Positions 2,305 to 17,894 of a DNA stretch of 28,274 nt are shown here, piece after piece. A program made the position numbers and the translations under genes. Below the pieces are notes generated by a model. It ran no database searches. It worked only from the letters and a program-made list of their open reading frames with translations, and was not told the DNA's origin. How positions within the stretch are numbered: the stretch's first letter is position 1; each line of letters starts with the position of its first letter. The stretch lies in UHGV virus genome UHGV-1752292, one strand, 5' to 3'. The stretch comes from a virus.

Positions 2305-2334
2305 ATTCTAGTTTGTTGATACTCTATTGTCAAA
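2305..2334 (-). promoter_or_regulatory. Sigma70-like promoter upstream of the SSB gene (minus strand)
   Basis: On the minus strand TTGACA (plus 2329-2334) - 18 nt - TAGAAT (plus 2305-2310), about 35 nt upstream of the SSB start codon. Confidence 0.35.
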
Positions 2335-2340
2335 TACTAA

Positions 2341-2490
2341 TTACTGGAAGTTGTGCTTATCTTTAGAAGCTGCTTTACGTGCAGTTTTTCCAGTTCTTAC
2401 ACGTTTTTCTTCATAGTATTTTGCTGGTTTTCCAGCAGTGGCTTTTAAGGAATCCCCAAAAACTTTTTCAAATGCTTTAGAGTGTTTCAT
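2341..2490 (-). CDS. Small basic hypothetical protein (49 aa)
   Basis: Not in the ORF track (under 60 aa). ATG at 2488-2490 overlaps the TGA stop of the upstream ORF (ATGA coupling); GGAG 7 nt upstream. Translation MKHSKAFEKVFGDSLKATAGKPAKYYEEKRVRTGKTARKAASKDKHNFQ is Lys/Arg-rich. Confidence 0.3.
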   Translation of the reverse strand: MKHSKAFEKVFGDSLKATAGKPAKYYEEKRVRTGKTARKAASKDKHNFQ

Positions 2491-2780
2491 GATATTCTCC
2501 GATATACTTGATATTCAAACACATTTTCTTTAATTATAAACAGCCAACTAATATTATGCTGAGGCAGCGCAATGACGACTGTAATCATGTTCTGGTGGAA
2601 GTCTTCTTTTATCTCAACTTCTCCATCGCATTTCATGAGGAGCATTCTATAGAACCTATCAATCTTTGTCAAACACTCTTCCTGAAATTTATTTAAACTT
2701 TTTTCTTCAAAGAAGGGTGTGAACCCCTCTCTTTTATAGCTATCACTCAGTTTCGAATGGGCAGTCATCCGCATCCTCAC
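2487..2780 (-). CDS. Hypothetical protein
   Basis: 97-aa ORF in the operon; 5' end overlaps the primase-helicase stop by 38 nt, so the true start may be an internal Met; stop overlaps the start of the next small ORF. Confidence 0.35.
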   Translation of the reverse strand: MRMRMTAHSKLSDSYKREGFTPFFEEKSLNKFQEECLTKIDRFYRMLLMKCDGEVEIKEDFHQNMITVVIALPQHNISWLFIIKENVFEYQVYRRIS

Positions 2781-4734
2781 TTAATACAGGTGGAATCGTT
2801 GAGCTTTGACGCTGCTCTTCAGTATAGACTTCACCAGTCTCACGGTCAAACACTTCATCCTCATAATGTGGCAAAGAGTCATCATAATGGTCTTCAGCTT
2901 CACCAATACCAAACTGTTGGCGAATATTTTCTGCTGCACCATCAATATCAACACCACATCCAGAAGCTTTGATAAGACGTCCTGTATCTGGATTGTACCA
3001 AGTATGACCAGCAATACCTGTTGATTTACCATGACGACGACACTTAGTTAACTTGATTTTTGTCAAGTTTTTCTTAACAGGGTCTGGGTCAACCTTGTTA
3101 CGCATTAACAGAATGTTGTTCATAGAAATCTGGAAATACGCACCAGAGCCTTTAATATCCTCTTCAGAGATATCTCCACCTTCAGAGTTAGCCTTCTGAC
3201 CACCTGCACTCTTACGAACGTGACAGACGTTCACTTGTGCATACTGGTAGCGTTTGCAACGACGCAATAGCTCAGATAAAACTTCCTCTTCATCCGTATC
3301 TGAACGTGACAGAGCCAACGTAATAGGGTCAAGAATAATAATCTTACAGTCTAAGCTGTTAACAAGATAGTCAACAAACTCCAGCAAGTTATCTTGGTCA
3401 ATTGCCCCTTGATGGTCTACGATGTGGATACGACGACCTTTAGATAGTTCTGCGTGTGCTTCCTTCAATTCATCCCAATCACGTTCGTCATAAGGAATCT
3501 CAGCAATCTGCTTGCTAAGGTGGATTGCACAGAGCATCTCCATCAACTCTTCATAGGTATCCTCTACAGGAATTACACCAATATTGTAATCGGTATCTTT
3601 CCAAGCTGTGTAAATCATTTCACGAGTGTATGCTGATTTACCCACTGAAGATGGTGCTGCCAGAGTTGTAATCTCACCTAGACCATAACCACCATAAGTC
3701 AGCCTGTTCAAATCTCCGAAAGATTCTGGGAAAGGAATCAATGGAATCTGACCACGGTTCTTCATTGCCTCAAAACCATCTGCAAAGTTCTTGATACCAG
3801 CAGGGCAGTAACGAGGTGCATTGTAGATACGCTGCTTAAACCCTTCAAGAACTGTATCTTTCTCTTTATAGAACTTTGTCCACCATTCGTTAAGGTCTTT
3901 TACACCTTCTGGATACTGGAATAAACGAACCTTCTCAATAGGGAGAATGCCAGCAGCCTCTTTAGTGGCTTTAGCACCTGCTTCATCGTTATCAAAGCAC
4001 AAGTAAATCTCATCAAATGATGTGATGTACTGATAGTTGTCTTTGATAGACTTAATGTTTGCACCCGATGGAACAGATACGTGACAGTAATTCTTACGAC
4101 GAGACTTGTCCTTAATCGCAAGAGAAGTCATATAGATTGCTGTCGCACATTCCATCTCACCTTCCCAGATGAAGAGACGGTTACCACCTTCTGGAGCAAT
4201 CCATGAGCCGAACATTGCCAGTTCACCTTTAATGTCTCCAACACCACCAGAAAAGTCTTTTAACTTACCACGTAGGTGCTCTTTTGGGTGGTCTTCTGGG
4301 TAACGGTGACGAACACGGTAGCCAACATGCTCTAGCTTGCCATCTTCATTGCGTTTGTAAGTTGGGTAGAAATGCGCATCAATTTCACCATCACTGTCAA
4401 TATCAACCTTAATACCCAAACGCTCAAGAACTTTTGCAGGAATCTTCCTGTCTTTCAAGTCCATTGCTTCAAGGTTTTCTTTCACATCGTCTAAATCCAT
4501 TCCACGGAAAGTACGGTTTTTATTGTCTGAACCAGTAGAATAAGTGCTCACGATTTGTCCTTTATCAAAATCCCACTCTGGGAAACCTTTGTTACAACTA
4601 AAGCAAGTCATTGAATAAGAATCATCGTCATGATGATAGATTGAACCAGCATCTGATGAACCACAACGTGGACATGCACAATGACCAACAAACTGACCAG
4701 CCTCTTTCAATTTACGACCTTTAGACATTAGCAC
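2743..4734 (-). CDS. Bifunctional DNA primase-helicase (T7 gp4-like)
   Basis: 663 aa; N-terminal Cys4 zinc ribbon (CPRCGSSD…CFSCNKGF) resembling the T7 gp4 primase Zn motif; central acidic TOPRIM-like region; C-terminal DnaB-like helicase with Walker A (APSSVGKSAYT) and Walker B-like IILDPIT. Confidence 0.85.
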   Translation of the reverse strand: MLMSKGRKLKEAGQFVGHCACPRCGSSDAGSIYHHDDDSYSMTCFSCNKGFPEWDFDKGQIVSTYSTGSDNKNRTFRGMDLDDVKENLEAMDLKDRKIPAKVLERLGIKVDIDSDGEIDAHFYPTYKRNEDGKLEHVGYRVRHRYPEDHPKEHLRGKLKDFSGGVGDIKGELAMFGSWIAPEGGNRLFIWEGEMECATAIYMTSLAIKDKSRRKNYCHVSVPSGANIKSIKDNYQYITSFDEIYLCFDNDEAGAKATKEAAGILPIEKVRLFQYPEGVKDLNEWWTKFYKEKDTVLEGFKQRIYNAPRYCPAGIKNFADGFEAMKNRGQIPLIPFPESFGDLNRLTYGGYGLGEITTLAAPSSVGKSAYTREMIYTAWKDTDYNIGVIPVEDTYEELMEMLCAIHLSKQIAEIPYDERDWDELKEAHAELSKGRRIHIVDHQGAIDQDNLLEFVDYLVNSLDCKIIILDPITLALSRSDTDEEEVLSELLRRCKRYQYAQVNVCHVRKSAGGQKANSEGGDISEEDIKGSGAYFQISMNNILLMRNKVDPDPVKKNLTKIKLTKCRRHGKSTGIAGHTWYNPDTGRLIKASGCGVDIDGAAENIRQQFGIGEAEDHYDDSLPHYEDEVFDRETGEVYTEEQRQSSTIPPVLSEDADDCPFETE

Positions 4735-6536: not shown

Positions 6537-6959
6537 TTATTTCTCTCTCAGTTGGTTAAGTTTCTTTCTAGAACATTTTAAGTTTTCGGATGAAGAAAAG
6601 TCAAGTGTCTTTTCAGAACGTGGATAGTAATGTCTATCCCAAGAAGTTTCAACATCGTTAATCAGTGACGCTAGATTACACAGGTCTGTACCACTTTGCA
6701 ACCTCTTTTTAAGAGAATCTAGTAAAGCAACTGTGTCTTTAGCTTTACGTCTCGCTGTAGCAACATCTTTCATATGCTCAAATACAGAGCATTTTAAGTC
6801 ATCTTCATAGTTTTCAGACAACTCTATTTCATGTTGTATATCAACCATTCTCCTGTGATGGTGAGCATATTCCCGTTGAGCAGCAATGTCAAGTTCTTCC
6901 AACTTCTGCAAAGCCCTAACAAAGTCAGCTATGTCTGGGTGAACAAACATTTTCTGCAT
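6537..6959 (-). CDS. Hypothetical protein (first gene of leftward operon)
   Basis: 140-aa ORF directly downstream of the divergent AT-rich control region; no recognisable motif. Confidence 0.5.
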   Translation of the reverse strand: MQKMFVHPDIADFVRALQKLEELDIAAQREYAHHHRRMVDIQHEIELSENYEDDLKCSVFEHMKDVATARRKAKDTVALLDSLKKRLQSGTDLCNLASLINDVETSWDRHYYPRSEKTLDFSSSENLKCSRKKLNQLREK

Positions 6960-7216
6960 GTAAGCCTCTTTTAAGTAACTATTAAGTTTTAATCTTTTAT
7001 CTTAACGTATTCTATACGTTATACTTTAAAGCTTTTTAAAAGCTATTAAATAATCTTTTAAGAGTTTTAAAGTATCTGTATAGTTAAACTGTTAAGTAAC
7101 CTTTTAAGTAAAAACCCACTTCGCAAAGATTAACACCTTGTCAAGTACATTGTCAACTTGCTTTTTATAATTTTTTGCAGTAATGTATGAGGTTAATGAT
7201 TTTAGAGGGAGTAAAA
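6960..7216. promoter_or_regulatory. Divergent AT-rich intergenic control region
   Basis: About 255 bp of AT-rich non-coding DNA between divergently transcribed operons; TATAAT at 7166-7171 about 45 nt upstream of the polymerase start; near-palindrome AGCTTTTTAAAAGCT (7030-7044); recurring CTTTTAAG(A/T) motifs. No clean -35 could be paired with the -10. Confidence 0.4.
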
Positions 7217-9359
7217 ATGGAAAACGTAGATTTTAAAAACTTACATTTAGTTGGTGATACAGAGACTGATGGTTTACTCCTTGAGTTCACTAAGGTGCAC
7301 GTAATGGCTTTCGCAGACTATAAATCTGACGATGAAGAGCCTCCTGTATGGGTCTTTACAGATGAGCCTATCCTCGGTCACAAGTATACCAAGTACATTA
7401 AGGGTGGCTTGCGTGAAGGTGTTGAGTTTGCGTTAAAGGCAAAACGACTTTGCATCCATAATGGTTTAGGGTATGACTGGTGGGTTTTCAATCATATTGC
7501 ACCTGATTTGTGGAACTTTGATAATCCAAAGTGTAAGCCGTGGAGTAATTTCTTTCAGGATTCTCTTATCCAGTCTCGTGTTCAGTGGATGGATAGACCA
7601 ACTCCAAAGGGCTATAAAGGTGCTCATGGCTTGGCAGCATGGGGTGCTCGTGTTGGTGTACGTAAACCAGAGATTGAACATTGGGGTGTGTGGAATGCAG
7701 AAATCTTCACTCGTGTTGTAGAAGATATTCGTATTAACGCCAAAACTAAACGTGCACTGGATAATGAATATCTCAAGCTAAAGAAGTGTGGCGTAGATAC
7801 TTATGAAACCTACATGCGAGCTAAAGAAACATCTTTCTGGATGAGTCAACAAGCTATCAATGGTTGGAAAGCTGATAAAGAGCTTATGGAGTTCCATGTA
7901 AAGGAACTTGACAAGTTGACTAATGAACTTGCTTCAGAGGTTGAACCACATCTACCTCCAACTATTAAGACCAAAGGTAAAGTCACTGGAGAAGAGTTTG
8001 CAAAAGCTTGGAATGAGTATGTTGAAACATTCGGTCATGCAGATGGACTGAAGAGGATTACCAAGTACCCTAAGACAAAGTATCGTCAGCAGGTACGTAA
8101 CGGTGAGATGCAGACATATGAAATCAAGCCATTTGGTAAACCAACTACCAAAATTTTTAACATTGAAAAGCGGAATTGCTATACACCAACCAACTCCGTA
8201 ACTGGTGAAGAGTACAAGGAAGGTTTTGTAGCAATGAAGGATGCTCGTGCAATTTGCAATGAGTTGAATGCAAAGATTGGTAAGAAGTGCAAAGACTGGA
8301 AGCCAGTAAAAACAGTTAAAACTGTGAAGTACTATAATAGCCATGTTGTTAACCACTTTGAACTTGAGTCAAGTCGCTACACAGGTTTGATTGATGCACC
8401 ATATACACCAATTGAGTTCGAAGTTTCTCGTATGACTCAAGTAGCAGTTGTTAAAGACTACTTGAAATCAGTTGGTTGGATTCCAGATGACTGGAACTAC
8501 AAGAAAGACTCAGATGGTCGTCCTGTTAAGGTTTGTCGTTTCAAAGACAACAAAAAGATGATTACAAAACATCCTAAGTGGGATGAGATGGTGGAACGGT
8601 GTGGTTTGAGTTATGTTGAACATGAAGGTGTCCAGTACATTGAACATAACTGGTCTGTGAAGAAGTACACAGATTTGCTTGAACCTTGCTTAATCCGTAC
8701 TTCACCAAAACTTACTGAATCATCTTATGATACGATTGAAGGTGAACTTGGACAGAAGATTGCTAAGTACTACACTTTGATGCACCGACGCAGAACTATT
8801 GAGAACTCAAAGGATGATGAAAAAGGTTGGTTGAACCAGATTCGTCCTGATGGTCGCCTTAGTGCTGGTGCAATGGTGTTTGGTACTTCAACTGGACGTA
8901 TGACACAATATGGTATTGTAAACGTACCATCTGGTGCTGCTGTCTATGGAGCGCCTATGAGGGAGGTTTGGATTTGCGAGGAAGGGACTAATATCGTTTC
9001 AGTTGACCAGAACTCTGCACAGCTTGTTTTACTGTGCAACTTTATGGGTGATAAAGACTTCACCAAAGCGGTAACTGAAGGTAAAGAGTTTGTAGAGTTC
9101 ACTAAACAGGATGATGGACGATACTACTGCAAGCATCTTGATAAGTACCTAAATCCAGAGGCTGATAAATATTGTCGTTACGATGCTGATAACGATTTGT
9201 ATGAAGTCTACACAGGTACTGATGCGCATACACTTAACAGTATCTATTTTGCATTGAACAAAGAAGAAGATATTATCCGTTGTAGAGAGACACAGGATGA
9301 GGAACTTCTTCACGAGATAACTAAAGGCCGTAAGAAGGCTAAGAATGGTATCTATGCGT
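7217..9359 (+). CDS. DNA polymerase (family A, T7 gp5-like), exon 1
   Basis: ATG at 7217 preceded by AGAGGGA (the track ORF starts in-frame at 7187). 3'-5' exonuclease Exo I motif VGDTETDGL near the N-terminus; motif A-like IVSVDQNSAQL; frame runs into the first half of motif B (AKNGIYA) before the intron. Exon end set by the predicted P1 helix (see findings). Confidence 0.8.
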
Positions 9360-10164
9360 CAGTGGCGCATGTAAAACGTTGTGAATTGCTGGAAGCCTAA
9401 GTCTTAAAAGATATGGTAATCAGCAGCGAAGTCTCTGTTAGGACTCCTATAGTAGAAATGGGAGAGAGACAATGGTAGGTTATAAAGAGAGAGTTTGTTC
9501 CAGATGTGGCGAAGAGTTTAAGCCATATCAGTACAATCAAAAACGTTGCAGAAACTGCGTTCTTGAAGTAGACAGGAGAGCAGCAAGCCGTGTCATAGAA
9601 AAGGTATGTCCAAGCTGCAATAACCAATTCACACCTAGAACAGCAAGACAGACATATTGCAGTTCTGCATGTGGAGAAAAGGGAAAGGTAAAGAACTACT
9701 ACTTAAGGACTTACGGCCTAGAAAGAGAAGAGGTTGAAGAGTTGTTAAGTAAATGTGGCCATAAGTGCCAAATCTGTGGCGGTGAAGGTTTCATCATGAA
9801 TGGTTCAAGACATAAAGCTAAACTTGTTGTTGACCATGACCACAAAACAGGTAAGGTGAGAGGGATGTTGTGCCACAACTGTAACAGAGGTCTTGGCTTG
9901 TTCTCAGACAGTGTAGATAATATGCAGAGAGCAATTGCATACCTTAGTAAACAATAGTATTTTAGAGTTCCTAACAGAGAAACGTTCAGAGACTATCGAA
10001 AAGCATACTTAATGTATGAACTGAGTAGAGTAGGGTGGTAAGCTAATGACCATTCCCAAGTGCAACGGTAGTATTACTACTACGTGATATAGTCCGACAC
10101 TCCGTAGAAATGCGGAGAAGTTCATAAGAGAACTGGTACACCTTGCGAGTGTATTGACCAGATG
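9360..10164 (+). mobile_element. Group I self-splicing intron (805 nt) carrying a homing endonuclease ORF
   Basis: P-like element AATTGCTGGAAG (9384-9395) pairing with Q-like AATCAGCAGC (9418-9427); R-like GTTCAGAGACTA (9984-9995) and S-like GATATAGTCC (10086-10095) able to form P7; predicted P1 with U-G pair at the 5' splice site; intron ends in G10164; ORF sits between Q and R (P6 loop). Confidence 0.7.
9472..9957 (+). CDS. Intron-encoded HNH homing endonuclease (Endonuclease VII-like)
   Basis: 161 aa; VVDHDHKTGKVRGMLCHNCNRGLGLF matches the T4 endonuclease VII / HNH core (DHDH…GKVRG.LC..CN); two N-terminal CxxC pairs; GGGAGAGAGA RBS upstream. Confidence 0.8.
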   Translation: MVGYKERVCSRCGEEFKPYQYNQKRCRNCVLEVDRRAASRVIEKVCPSCNNQFTPRTARQTYCSSACGEKGKVKNYYLRTYGLEREEVEELLSKCGHKCQICGGEGFIMNGSRHKAKLVVDHDHKTGKVRGMLCHNCNRGLGLFSDSVDNMQRAIAYLSKQ

Positions 10165-10721
10165 TATTGTTCGGTGCAGGTGATGAGAAGTTTGCTAAGA
10201 CAATTAAGACTGCAACTACTCAGGAAGGTGCACTGACTAAACAGACTTACTTTATTCGTTTGCCTAAAATTAAGAAGCTGCTAGATGACTTGGAAGCTGA
10301 CTACAAAGCGACTAAAAAGGCACTTGAAGAGGTATTTGGTAAGACTGCTGCAATCTCTAAAGGGGGTTTTGTAAAGGTTGCTGGAGCTTGGTTGTGGTGT
10401 AAATCTCCACATAAGTTATTGAATTATTTGCTTATGGGTTCGGAAAGCCAGATTCAGAACGAGGCAATTAACCTCGCTTGCCGTCGTATGATTGACGAAG
10501 GTTTGATGAAGTTAAACGGTCGCAAACCAGCTATAGGTGCTCGTTTATTGTGCTCCTATCACGACGAGACGAGTTGGGAATGCCCAGAAAGTATGACGGC
10601 AGAGGTGAAAGCTGTTACTGATTGGTATTACGGACAAGCCTCTAAGAACTTAGGGCTTAAGAGTGAAACACTAGTAACTGGTACTGGTAAGGTTGGTAAG
10701 TCGTGGTTGGAAGTACATTAA
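10165..10721 (+). CDS. DNA polymerase (family A), exon 2
   Basis: Begins in the second half of motif B (LFGAGDEK, compare T7 YGAGDEK) and contains motif C (SYHDE). The track ORF 10167-10721 starts at TTG, which is not a genuine initiation codon here. Confidence 0.75.
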
Positions 10722-10731
10722 TGGTGTCAAA

Positions 10732-11259
10732 ATGATTACACAAGAACGTTTAAAGGAGCTACTACACTATGACCCCGAAACAGGGGTCTTTACTTGGCTT
10801 CGTAGAGATGGTGACTCAAGGGCTGTTAAAGTCTTTAACAGTCAGTACGCAGGACAGGTAGCGGGGAGCATCCAGATTGACTCAACTGGCCATAAACAGC
10901 TAACTATCTATTTTGACAAGAAAGCACATAAAGCGCACAGACTCGCATGGCTGTATGTGTATGGGAGTTTACCGAGAGGGATTATTGACCATGTTAATGG
11001 GGACTCTCTTGATAACAGGATTGTAAACTTAAGAGAAGCAGATGACTGTCAAAGTGCTTGGAATAAAAGCAAACTAGCCACCAATAAATCAGGCTATAAG
11101 GGTGTAAGTCTGAAGAAGAAGACTGGTAGGTGGGTTGCACAAATAAGCTATAAAGGTAAAAAGATGTTCTTAGGCTACTACGACACACCAGAAGAAGCCC
11201 ATAAAGCTTACTGTGAAGCTGCTATAAAACTCCACGGAGAGTTTGCAAAACTATCTTGA
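10732..11259 (+). CDS. Free-standing HNH homing endonuclease with AP2-type DNA-binding domain
   Basis: ATG at 10732 (track ORF starts at TTG 10693); HNH_3-like motif HRLAWLYVYG…IDHVNGDSLDNRIVNLR followed by AP2-like SGYKGVS…GRWVAQISYKGKKMFLGYYDTPEEAHKAY. Confidence 0.7.
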   Translation: MITQERLKELLHYDPETGVFTWLRRDGDSRAVKVFNSQYAGQVAGSIQIDSTGHKQLTIYFDKKAHKAHRLAWLYVYGSLPRGIIDHVNGDSLDNRIVNLREADDCQSAWNKSKLATNKSGYKGVSLKKKTGRWVAQISYKGKKMFLGYYDTPEEAHKAYCEAAIKLHGEFAKLS

Positions 11260-11310
11260 CAAGGTGCTCATGGAAGAGTATCTTATACTATATCTTGTAT
11301 AGGAGGCCAT

Positions 11311-11523
11311 ATGACACTTGCAGACGTTATTCAGCAACTTCACGACAATTGCTATACTCCAGAGTTGATTCAAGAGATGCTTATTGTGGTGATGCCTAGT
11401 AAGTTCGTAAAAGGTTTTAATAGTGAATCTTTAAAGTCTGCGCATATCCTTATTGTTGACGGTAAGATTGCAAGAGACCGTACAGGAGTCCTCAAGGGTG
11501 AACGTATTAGTATTGGCCTCTGA
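11311..11523 (+). CDS. Hypothetical protein
   Basis: 70-aa ORF with strong RBS AGGAGG 6 nt upstream; a possible TTGACA-N17-TATCTT promoter lies at 11256-11284. Confidence 0.45.
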   Translation: MTLADVIQQLHDNCYTPELIQEMLIVVMPSKFVKGFNSESLKSAHILIVDGKIARDRTGVLKGERISIGL

Positions 11524-16585: not shown

Positions 16586-17485
16586 ATGTCACAAGCAGAT
16601 ACAAGTTACAAAAATATCCTGAACCATGTTTTATCAGTCGGTGAACTGCGTACTACACGAACTGGAGACGTTATCTCTGCATTTGCTCCACCACAATTTC
16701 GTTTTGATATGAGAACTGGTTTCCCACTCTTAACATCTAAACAGGTGTTTACACGGCAAGTTATTGGGGAAGCTCTATGGTTCCTGAATGGTGAGAATAA
16801 ACTTGGTGAACTCCGTTACCGCACTTGGGGTGAAAATGATGGGGAACGCTGGACTATCTGGTCAGATGATTTTAAACGCTGGTTAAGCTCTAATTATTCT
16901 TCTGAACAAGATTGGTTAGAAGATGCAGGTGGAAGAATCTACGGAGTTCAGTGGAGAAACTTTGAAGGCCATAATGGTTGTGTTGTAGACCAACTAGAGA
17001 CCTTAGTAACGAAGATGAAAGGTGATATCACAGACCGTTACATGCTTGTTAATGCTTGGAATGCAGCAGATATTGCAGCAAACTCAATGGCTTTAGCACC
17101 TTGTCACGTTCTGTTTCAGATTTATATCACTAACGAGGGTGAAGTTGATTTGCAATGGTATCAGCGTTCAGTAGACACCTTTTTAGGACTCCCGTTTAAT
17201 ATTGCATCTTATGGTTTTATTCTGGAAGTTCTTTGCAAGATGACTGGATACACTCCACGGTACTTGATAGGTGTCTTTGGAGATACTCAGATTTATCAGA
17301 ACCATATGAAACAGGTTTATGAACTGATGAACAATGAAGAGTTCCATGCACCTACTTTTGAGATTGGTGTGCAGCTTAACACTCTAAGTGACCTTAAACA
17401 TCTTACTGCAAGTGATTTTATTGGTGGCATTAACAACTACCAACATGCAGGGAAGATTGAAGCACCTTTATCAGTAGGCAAGTAA
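16586..17485 (+). CDS. thyA: Thymidylate synthase
   Basis: 299 aa; active-site ALAPCHVLFQ (Pro-Cys-His) and conserved DLQWYQRS-type region; immediately downstream of DHFR as in T4 frd-td. Confidence 0.85.
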   Translation: MSQADTSYKNILNHVLSVGELRTTRTGDVISAFAPPQFRFDMRTGFPLLTSKQVFTRQVIGEALWFLNGENKLGELRYRTWGENDGERWTIWSDDFKRWLSSNYSSEQDWLEDAGGRIYGVQWRNFEGHNGCVVDQLETLVTKMKGDITDRYMLVNAWNAADIAANSMALAPCHVLFQIYITNEGEVDLQWYQRSVDTFLGLPFNIASYGFILEVLCKMTGYTPRYLIGVFGDTQIYQNHMKQVYELMNNEEFHAPTFEIGVQLNTLSDLKHLTASDFIGGINNYQHAGKIEAPLSVGK

Positions 17486-17529
17486 AACAAAAAAAGGCTC
17501 CCGTAAAAAGGAGCCTTAAACTTTATTTT
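17484..17529. terminator. Bidirectional intrinsic terminator between convergent operons
   Basis: Hairpin AAGGCTCC - 8-nt loop - GGAGCCTT (17494-17517) between the thymidylate synthase stop (17485) and the stop of the minus-strand 123-aa gene (17523). Minus-strand RNA gets a direct U-run (A-run 17484-17493); plus-strand RNA gets TTTATTTTT slightly downstream. Confidence 0.6.
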
Positions 17530-17894
17530 TCAGTATTCTTTGTGTTCTTTTCAGTAATAGCTTGGAGGGCTGATACTGATTGAGCCAGATTGTTCACACT
17601 ATCAGAGAATTTATCAAGAGTCTTAGTAAGTTTTGCGTTCTCACCCTTAACATTCTCTAACTGGACTTTCTGGTTCTCCATCCCTAGCTGAAGCAGCCTC
17701 ATATCAGACTGTAAATCACGAATAGCTGAATAATTACTTTTGGAATAATTATCTAACTGCTGTAACTTTGTTGTGATAGACACTTCTTGCTTACCATCCG
17801 AGACTTGCATGGTGGTATACATCCCAATAACACTAAAAATACCAACTACAATTGCACCAATATTATTTTTAAAAGCTTCCTCCAGCCACTTCAT
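17523..17894 (-). CDS. Membrane-anchored coiled-coil protein (possible spanin-like or lysis-associated)
   Basis: 123 aa; N-terminal hydrophobic helix (IGAIVVGIFSVIGMYTT) then Gln/Leu-rich coiled-coil-like sequence; last gene of the late operon; start overlaps the previous stop (ATGA). Confidence 0.4.
   Translation of the reverse strand: MKWLEEAFKNNIGAIVVGIFSVIGMYTTMQVSDGKQEVSITTKLQQLDNYSKSNYSAIRDLQSDMRLLQLGMENQKVQLENVKGENAKLTKTLDKFSDSVNNLAQSVSALQAITEKNTKNTEK

Follow-up and report, generated by a model that had tools for sequence, protein, structure and literature searches.

A predicted mobile group I intron carrying an endonuclease VII-type gene interrupts motif B of the DNA polymerase gene in a Felix O1-like phage

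The group I introns of the bacteriophage T4 genes td and nrdB combine a phage IA2 core with an endonuclease open reading frame (ORF) looped out of P6a and an early in-frame stop codon for the upstream exon, and they home with co-conversion of exon markers on their flanks; unlike the intron analyzed here, they contain P2, reside in nucleotide-metabolism genes, and encode GIY-YIG (I-TevI) or HNH (I-TevIII) enzymes. Group IA2 introns are also found at a conserved motif of family A DNA polymerase genes, namely, in phages PhiI/W31 (I-TslI), Pf-WMP3 (I-PfoP3I), SPO1/SP82 (I-HmuI/II), Bastille (I-BasI), and phiL7. In T7-like phages, the polymerase introns were assigned to subgroup IA2 by the presence of P7.1/P7.2 with a GUA-containing linker and the lack of P2, and the sites listed for phage family A polymerase introns correspond to positions 674, 676, and 881 of Escherichia coli Pol I (PMC3428280). 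Here, we analyzed a stretch of 28,274 nucleotides (nt) from the UHGV virus genome UHGV-1752292, referred to below as the window, in which a family A DNA polymerase gene is interrupted. Our analysis indicates, with a probability that we put at roughly 0.93, that the interruption is a mobile phage IA2-type group I intron that lies in the O-helix (motif B) codons of this essential gene of a Felix O1-like myovirus, is spliced at 9359^10165 (the caret marks the junction), and carries a homing endonuclease. Like the phage polymerase introns named above, it has P7.1/P7.2 with a GUA-containing linker, an ORF in P6a, and U·G and terminal G splice sites; P2 is missing both here and in Pf-WMP3, the latter having been modeled on PhiI/W31 (PMC3428280). 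The endonucleases of the PhiI/W31-type polymerase introns, however, are classical HNH nickases, whereas the present one has an endonuclease VII (Endo VII; DHHRN) motif, and their splicing was demonstrated experimentally, whereas splicing of the present one is a prediction from sequence.

The 3.5-kb polymerase region of the window shares 88 to 95.5% identity with its counterpart in numerous Felix O1-like myoviruses (Felixounavirus), with 261 phage records matching the region; the closest match is Escherichia phage JLBYU32 (~95%), followed by Salmonella phages SP4, SEP1, and others. Judged by these matches, the window is a Felixounavirus segment. The polymerase frame begins at ATG 7217 and stops at 9398-9400, its product ending with ...AKNGIYASVAHVKRCELLEA, and a second polymerase ORF (10167-10721) opens with LFGAGDEK, just as an earlier reading made from the letters of the window (the sequence-only reading) had described. 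The ATG at 7217 is preceded by GAGGGAG; two upstream in-frame ATGs (7187 and 7196) are alternative starts, and the equivalent of 7217 is used in most GenBank relatives.

Joining 9359 to 10165 in silico yielded 2700 nt without an internal stop, encoding a protein of 899 amino acids (aa) that reads ...AKNGIYALLFGAGDEK... / ...GRKKAKNGIYALLFGAGDEKFAK..., with ...AKNGIYA-LLFGAGDEK... at the junction. The predicted ligated RNA reads ...UAUGCGU^UAUUGUUC..., and the predicted ligated exon sequence is ...GGUAUCUAUGCGU^UAUUGUUCGGUGC.... Family A motif B (R-x3-K-x3-Y/F-x3-Y/F-G) is contiguous in the spliced protein. Furthermore, Pfam DNA_pol_A matched the spliced protein with 53.1 bits against a gathering score of 34.3, in one stretch (residues 699-895) that spans the junction, while the separate halves remained below 34.3, with 17.6 bits (profile positions 93-185) and 25.2 bits (profile positions 218-379). 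T7 DNA polymerase 517-TRDNAKTFIYGFLYGAGDEK aligned without a gap to residues 704-GRKKAKNGIYALLFGAGDEK of the spliced protein, T7 residues 517-638 covering the junction, and the insertion point is thereby placed in the O-helix between the counterparts of T7 G527 and F528, a single residue beyond Tyr526. This alignment bears out the proposal that the interruption lies within motif B and that splicing restores the spacing found in T7.

Comparison with intron-less alleles gave the same answer. A 400-nt query consisting of the predicted ligated exons matched intron-less felixounaviruses as a single contiguous piece, and Felix O1, UAB_Phi87, and LF82P5 all aligned to the ligated product without a gap, which was one of the checks suggested in advance. 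The junction itself is gap-free in the window (...TATGCGT^TATTGTTCGG...), UAB_Phi87 (...TATGCACTGCTGTTCGG...), and Felix O1 (...TACGCCCTGTTATTTGG...), all of which encode Y-A-L-L-F-G; the intron-less sequence at the insertion site is ...ATCTACGCCCTGTTATTTGG... in Felix O1 and ...ATCTATGCACTGCTGTTCGG... in UAB_Phi87. The Felix O1 genome paper describes a single 906-aa polymerase and no introns, which is correct for Felix O1. Moving either boundary by one base changed the reading to A-S-L or A-V-L, and either the U·G pair or the terminal G was then lost. The predicted 9359^10165 is thus the only junction at which the homologue-like A-L-L reading goes together with both a terminal G and U·G pairing at the 5′ splice site. 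Collectively, the predicted junction is backed by three independent tests that agree (intron-less alleles, T7 alignment, and Pfam), and the 899-aa polymerase expected from it stands.

The two ORFs might instead represent a genuinely split polymerase gene, whose 727-aa N-terminal and 184-aa C-terminal products are translated apart and associate without RNA splicing. Most deposited relatives are annotated in this way, with two "DNA polymerase" coding sequences (CDSs) and an endonuclease, and TTG 10167 could in principle start translation. However, this TTG is the sole in-frame start candidate of the second piece and has no obvious Shine-Dalgarno sequence upstream, and the first product would bear 13 intron-encoded residues (9359 is followed by 13 sense codons and a stop, not by the 17 intron codons counted in the sequence-only reading). 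In addition, the O-helix is broken at its middle, a single residue beyond the conserved Tyr; relatives that lack the intron encode the polymerase in an uninterrupted ORF whose sequence at the junction is exactly the one predicted; and the RNA between the two pieces has a conserved group I core, with P1, P10, and the terminal G exactly where they restore the frame. We consider a split gene very improbable.

All helices of a group I core could be mapped in the interruption (Table 1). The pairing proposed for the end of exon 1 (AUGCGU, 9354-9359, with GCGCAU, 9365-9370, and a U·G pair at the 5′ splice site) is present and extends to 7 bp; the proposed pairing of CAGUG (9360-9364) with UAUUG (10165-10169) is present with 5 bp, and G10164 is indeed the last intron base. 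P7.1 (10004-10018), the linker AACUGAGUAGAGUAG, and P7.2 (10033-10055) are in place and P2 is lacking, the features used for subgroup IA2, and in its predicted structure the element conforms to the usual phage IA2 type of group I intron. The exon 1 frame continues for 41 nt into the intron, through the 5′ strands of P1, P3, and P4, and its stop codon UAA (9398-9400) falls inside the P5 internal loop.

The structure model comprises 90 pairs from P1 to P10 and was tested on 16 distinct felixounavirus intron variants. In the window, all 90 pairs are standard, and over the 16 variants, pairing was kept in 99.9% of cells, compared with 27 to 44% when the partners were slid by 1 to 3 columns. Two pairs changed in a compensatory manner: U9432-A9980 of P6a is C-G in 6 variants (the ORF-less ones with a short hairpin), and U10072-A10079 of P8 is C-G in 7. 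The resulting 13 doubly changed cells were reached by none of 500 shuffles. Nine one-sided helix changes (in P3, P5a, P7.1, P7.2, and P8) all exchange Watson-Crick for wobble pairs or the reverse, so that pairing is kept, and the only two unpaired cells are both in the peripheral P6a. All 7 pairs of P1 are invariant, while the third-codon positions of the exon just upstream vary.

Table 1. Coordinates of the polymerase exons, the predicted intron, its helices, and the intron-encoded ORF in the window
Feature	Coordinates	Strand	Description
Polymerase exon 1	7217-9359	+	714 codons and first base of codon 715; partial Pfam DNA_pol_A match
Polymerase exon 2	10165-10721	+	last two bases of codon 715 to stop codon; partial Pfam DNA_pol_A match
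Group I intron	9360-10164	+	805 nt, IA2-like (P7.1/P7.2, no P2), terminal G10164
Endonuclease ORF	9472-9957	+	161 aa, intact; wholly within P6a loop
5′ core	9377-9428	+	
3′ core	9983-10161	+	
P1	9353-9359 / 9365-9371	+	exon UAUGCGU with internal guide GCGCAUG; 7 bp including U9353·G9371; U9359·G9365 at 5′ splice site
P2	absent		J1/3 is UAAAA
P3	9377-9383 / 10061-10067	+	
P4	9387-9392 / 9420-9425	+	
P5	9395-9397 / 9415-9417	+	
P5a	9401-9404 / 9409-9412	+	loop UAAA
P6	9426-9428 / 9983-9985	+	
P6a	9432-9443 / 9969-9980	+	12-bp stem closing the 525-nt loop that holds the endonuclease gene
P7	9989 and 9991-9995 / 10090-10095	+	
P7.1	10004-10008 / 10014-10018	+	
P7.2	10033-10039 / 10049-10055	+	
P8	10068-10073 / 10078-10083	+	
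P9	10100-10106 / 10111-10117	+	GAAA loop
P9.1	10120-10123 / 10130-10133	+	
P9.2	10134-10141 / 10149-10152 and 10157-10160	+	
P10	9360-9364 / 10165-10169	+	CAGUG (P1 loop) with UAUUG; 5 bp, two G·U; invariant in 16 variants

Several observations weigh against reading the element as a mobile group I intron that splices at this junction. At gathering thresholds, Rfam gave no match in the window. The felixounavirus copies vary little (mean column identity, 96%), and covariation within the family therefore rests on two pairs; a scan of IMG/VR with the core pattern added little diversity, as it returned only 5 near-identical loci. Thermodynamic folding of the ORF-less intron was nondiscriminating (z = -1.39); the minimum-energy fold recovers P1, P3, P4, P5, P8, and P9 and cannot represent the P3/P7 pseudoknot. 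The L5 tetraloop (9405-9408) is UAAA in the window and JLBYU32, whereas the other 14 of the 16 variants have a GNRA loop (GUAA, GAGA, or GGAA). Finally, an experimental study of splicing or endonuclease cleavage by this element was not found in the searchable literature.

Given the sub-threshold score and the free-standing HNH genes that are common in these genomes, the insertion could merely mimic an intron, being in truth an intein, a free-standing endonuclease cassette, an assembly artifact, or a chance resemblance. At relaxed thresholds, the Rfam group I intron model RF00028 matched the window in two parts, at 9348-9503 (P1-P6; 24.4 bits, local E value of 8e-4) and 9909-10117 (P7-P9; 15.4 bits); over the whole 28-kb window the score was 24.3 bits (E value of 0.022), and no other RF00028 signal, as would point to a second group I intron, was detected there at an E value of 0.5 or less. 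The match is split and weak because of the 525-nt ORF insertion in P6a and not because the core is absent, and the gathering score is an operational threshold rather than a biological criterion. Sibling introns at this position that lack the ORF scored 60.6, 62.1, and 62.9 bits against the same model (cutoff, 50; E values of ~1e-14), and outside the P6a loop, the EC106 copy differs from the window intron by two bases, both in the L5 loop, so that the RF00028 result for the siblings transfers to the window by near-identity. The covariance check proposed for the group I assignment gave two sub-threshold halves in the window itself and scores above the cutoff in the ORF-less siblings, and the core reported in the sequence-only reading was recovered through them and through the mapped helices. 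An intein was rejected on the grounds that the insert does not keep the polymerase frame and contains many stops. Since the architecture is identical in dozens of independent genomes and copies without the ORF are still present at the site and recognized by RF00028, there is next to no likelihood that the insertion only resembles an intron, and we regard that reading as effectively refuted by the sibling scores and the structure test.

The departure of L5 from the GNRA loop of most variants bears on another reading, in which the intron is real and yet not an autonomous ribozyme here, because it needs a protein cofactor, splices inefficiently owing to the UAAA loop, or uses a slightly different junction. 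The UAAA loop may weaken a tertiary contact, and because the exon 1 frame enters the intron and runs through strands of P1, P3, and P4 before its stop, translating ribosomes could interfere with folding. On the other hand, the UAAA allele is shared with at least one further phage that was isolated independently and is viable, JLBYU32, the polymerase being essential; every helix of the catalytic core is intact; and the U·G pair, terminal G, and reading frame are jointly satisfied by 9359^10165 only. A dependent or differently spliced intron therefore appears unlikely to us, and the autonomous group I intron remains our preferred reading.

The ORF within the P6a loop is preceded by a Shine-Dalgarno sequence (GGGAGAG, 9460-9466). 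Its product matched Pfam Endonuclease_7 (PF02945; 9.5e-20) and PHROG "endonuclease VII" families (phrog_307; 2.8e-43), and among solved structures it matched the nuclease domain of Hpy99I (2e-7) and T4 endonuclease VII (0.013). The C-terminal DHHRN motif is complete (C99QIC, D121-H122-D123-H124, R130, and C134HNC-N138), and two further CxxC pairs lie in the N-terminal part. On these grounds, the ORF at 9472-9957 is a predicted Endo VII-type homing endonuclease of the DHHRN (beta-beta-alpha-metal) type. Fang et al. (2018) found the DHHRN motif at the C terminus in their endonuclease clade and listed proteins of EC6, FSL SP-010, JH2, and 2 JES-2013 as intron-encoded (PMC6083498); two of these phages, EC6 and FSL SP-010, also rank near the top of the matches to the window. 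With F-CphI and the DHHRN family, the window protein shares the C-terminal CX2C...DHDH...R...CX2C-N arrangement, which is the "endonuclease clade" architecture (PMC6083498). F-CphI, however, is free-standing beside the psbA intron of cyanophage S-PM2, whereas the window protein lies inside its own intron and has the two extra N-terminal CxxC pairs.

A small hairpin, CUCCUAU/AUGGGAG (9444-9450 with 9458-9464), could sequester the Shine-Dalgarno sequence of the endonuclease gene; the local fold was not significant (z = -1.49). An equivalent CUCCU/AGGAG hairpin is found in a diverged copy.

The same intron occurs, at the same site and with the same exon flanks (TATGCGT^TATTGTT), in Meda (MH586731), EC6, FSL SP-010, JLBYU32, SEP1, BPS17W1, and EC106, among others. 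The felixounavirus copies are 96 to 100% identical to the window in the core and 80 to 99% identical in the endonuclease, and the differences are at the allele level only; the window allele is the full-length ORF form with the UAAA L5 loop. By a rough count that includes duplicates, the intron core is present in ~97 of ~261 related phage records, and an endonuclease of at least 60% identity is present in ~43 (also a rough count, duplicates included). The alleles take several forms. ORF-less copies of 267 to 268 nt with a short P6a hairpin are found in SSBS18_WS_10_728, BPS17W1, Meda, REP8, L27, and phiWec174. ORF-deleted copies of ~310 nt, in which a clean deletion has left the long P6a stem, are found in EC106, garuso, and S19cd. 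vB_EcoM-VpaE1 carries an ORF-truncated form of 780 nt with a 101-aa ORF, and the ORF-intact form (801 to 805 nt) is carried by the window, JLBYU32, allfine, EC6, Si3, and others. All of these forms and intron-less alleles occur side by side among close relatives, a patchwork that would be expected if a homing element repeatedly invades, decays, and is lost. Moreover, all 16 intron-plus variants have identical exon bases in P1 and P10 (TATGCGT^TATTG), with synonymous differences from every intron-less allele examined, while third-codon positions just outside P1 do vary among them. These invariant flanking bases are consistent with co-conversion combined with selection for P1/P10 pairing.

Two introns outside the felixounaviruses help to place the element. 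Pseudomonas phage JHP (Pakpunavirus, MK443265.1) contains a homologous intron of 710 nt (2324-3033 of the examined locus) with an Endo VII-type ORF that is 42% identical to that of the window; it scored 39 bits against RF00028 with the ORF in place. The insertion point corresponds to that of the window to the nucleotide, in the same codon and phase (KYG-T^GT in JHP and IYA-T^TA in the window), and in-silico splicing gave an ORF of 904 aa, its KYG^CTYGAQAGK aligning with IYA^LLFGAGDEK; the family A polymerase of JHP is unannotated in the record, appearing as two entries of "hypothetical protein." The two introns share CAUGUAAAAC..GUGUGAAUU, the GAGUAGAGUAGG linker, and GAUAUAGUC. P1, P3, P4, P5, P7.1, P7.2, P8, P9, and P9.1 are all retained in JHP with different sequences; for instance, P3 is CUGUGUG/CGCACAG in JHP and CGUUGUG/UGCAACG in the window, and P4 is UCAGG/CCUGA and UGCUGG/UCAGCA, respectively. 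The second intron, in the polymerase gene of the T7-like Yersinia phage Altay-2017 (Berlinvirus, OR809231.1; 2320-2999 of the examined locus), encodes an Endo VII-type protein with 49% identity to that of the window, and its P9.1 sequence, GUUCAUAAGAGAAC, is the same as in the window; the insertion point, however, lies 11 nt further upstream than the Felix site (RDNAKTF^IYGFLYGAG). In the record, the polymerase gene is annotated as several fragments. In both JHP and Altay-2017, the ORF extends into the P7 region, whereas the window ORF ends inside the P6a loop, and the host genera are unrelated.

Unannotated group I introns were also detected in the N4-like phages Escherichia ZQ2 (460-703 of the examined locus) and Erwinia MIF8 (2455-2702), with RF00028 scores of 91.8 and 94.4 bits. 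Their 5′ core resembles the present one and an unannotated ORF follows, but the host gene is RNA polymerase 2; they were rejected as same-gene relatives, as they do not lie in a DNA polymerase gene and are related by the ribozyme core only.

T7 Y526 is conventionally equated with Pol I F762, which would place the present site at about Pol I 763/764; by this equivalence, motif B is therefore a further site beyond 674, 676, and 881. One may speculate, and we do so tentatively, that a hotspot for intron homing, distinct from the published sites, lies in the O-helix codons (T7 G527/F528) just past the nucleotide-discriminating Tyr and has been reached by related intron/Endo VII pairs at the identical nucleotide in Felixounavirus and Pakpunavirus and 11 nt away in Berlinvirus, and that the endonuclease may serve as a weapon against intron-less felixounaviruses in mixed infections. 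A weapon-like role has been reported for the intron endonuclease of PhiPA3.

For this copy, we infer self-splicing by two transesterifications, as in established group I chemistry, with P1, P10, and the terminal G as guides. The end of exon 1 would pair with the internal guide sequence in the pre-mRNA, the resulting P1 having U9359·G9365 where cleavage occurs, and a guanosine bound in P7 would attack after U9359. P10 (9360-9364 with 10165-10169) would then position exon 2, the freed 3′-OH of U9359 would attack after G10164, and ligation of the exons would produce the mRNA for the 899-aa polymerase. The probable target of the 161-aa endonuclease is the intron-less polymerase allele of a co-infecting relative, cut close to the point where the intron inserts, and repair would copy the intron together with the flanking synonymous exon changes needed by P1 and P10, the route by which the element presumably homes.

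The surrounding genes correspond to the Felix O1 replication module, with exonuclease, primase/helicase, and deoxynucleoside monophosphate kinase genes followed by the divergently transcribed polymerase, ligase, dihydrofolate reductase, and thymidylate synthase genes. A free-standing ORF of 175 aa on the plus strand (10732-11259, from ATG 10732), which starts 11 nt past the polymerase stop, encodes an endonuclease with HNH_3 and AP2 domains (Pfam, 1.6e-13 and 1.1e-12; phrog_99, 1.6e-71). A gene annotated as an HNH endonuclease occupies the same position in Meda, BPS17W1, and EC106, a correspondence in position and annotation. The closest relative, JLBYU32, has no gene there, and the ORF therefore represents an optional second homing-type gene flanking the polymerase. 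A scan of 6900-11400 for promoters and terminators found fewer promoter-like sites than in shuffles and no noteworthy signal inside the intron. Just past the thymidylate synthase gene, the Rfam small RNA STnc100 gave a weak match on the minus strand (17485-17569; 24.9 bits against a gathering score of 47; E value of 0.1), which is probably due to chance.

The element is already known and ordinary: many relatives whose genomes are sequenced carry it, and the literature has taken note of it, with a mention of the intron in the Meda paper; current understanding is unchanged by our finding. In the Meda GenBank record, the polymerase CDS is a two-piece join spanning 2968 nt, that is, 2700 plus 268, and it has no internal stop with the boundaries predicted here, whereas most other records list two polymerase CDSs and "endonuclease VII." In practical terms, most database records annotate this polymerase gene wrongly, and the correct product would be a single 899-aa enzyme made after RNA splicing, in phages that are widely used for biocontrol and therapy. 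The insertion in the O-helix is one more case in which an intron targets an essential gene at its most conserved codons, and the locus offers a convenient natural system for the dynamics of homing endonucleases and for competition between phages of enterobacteria.

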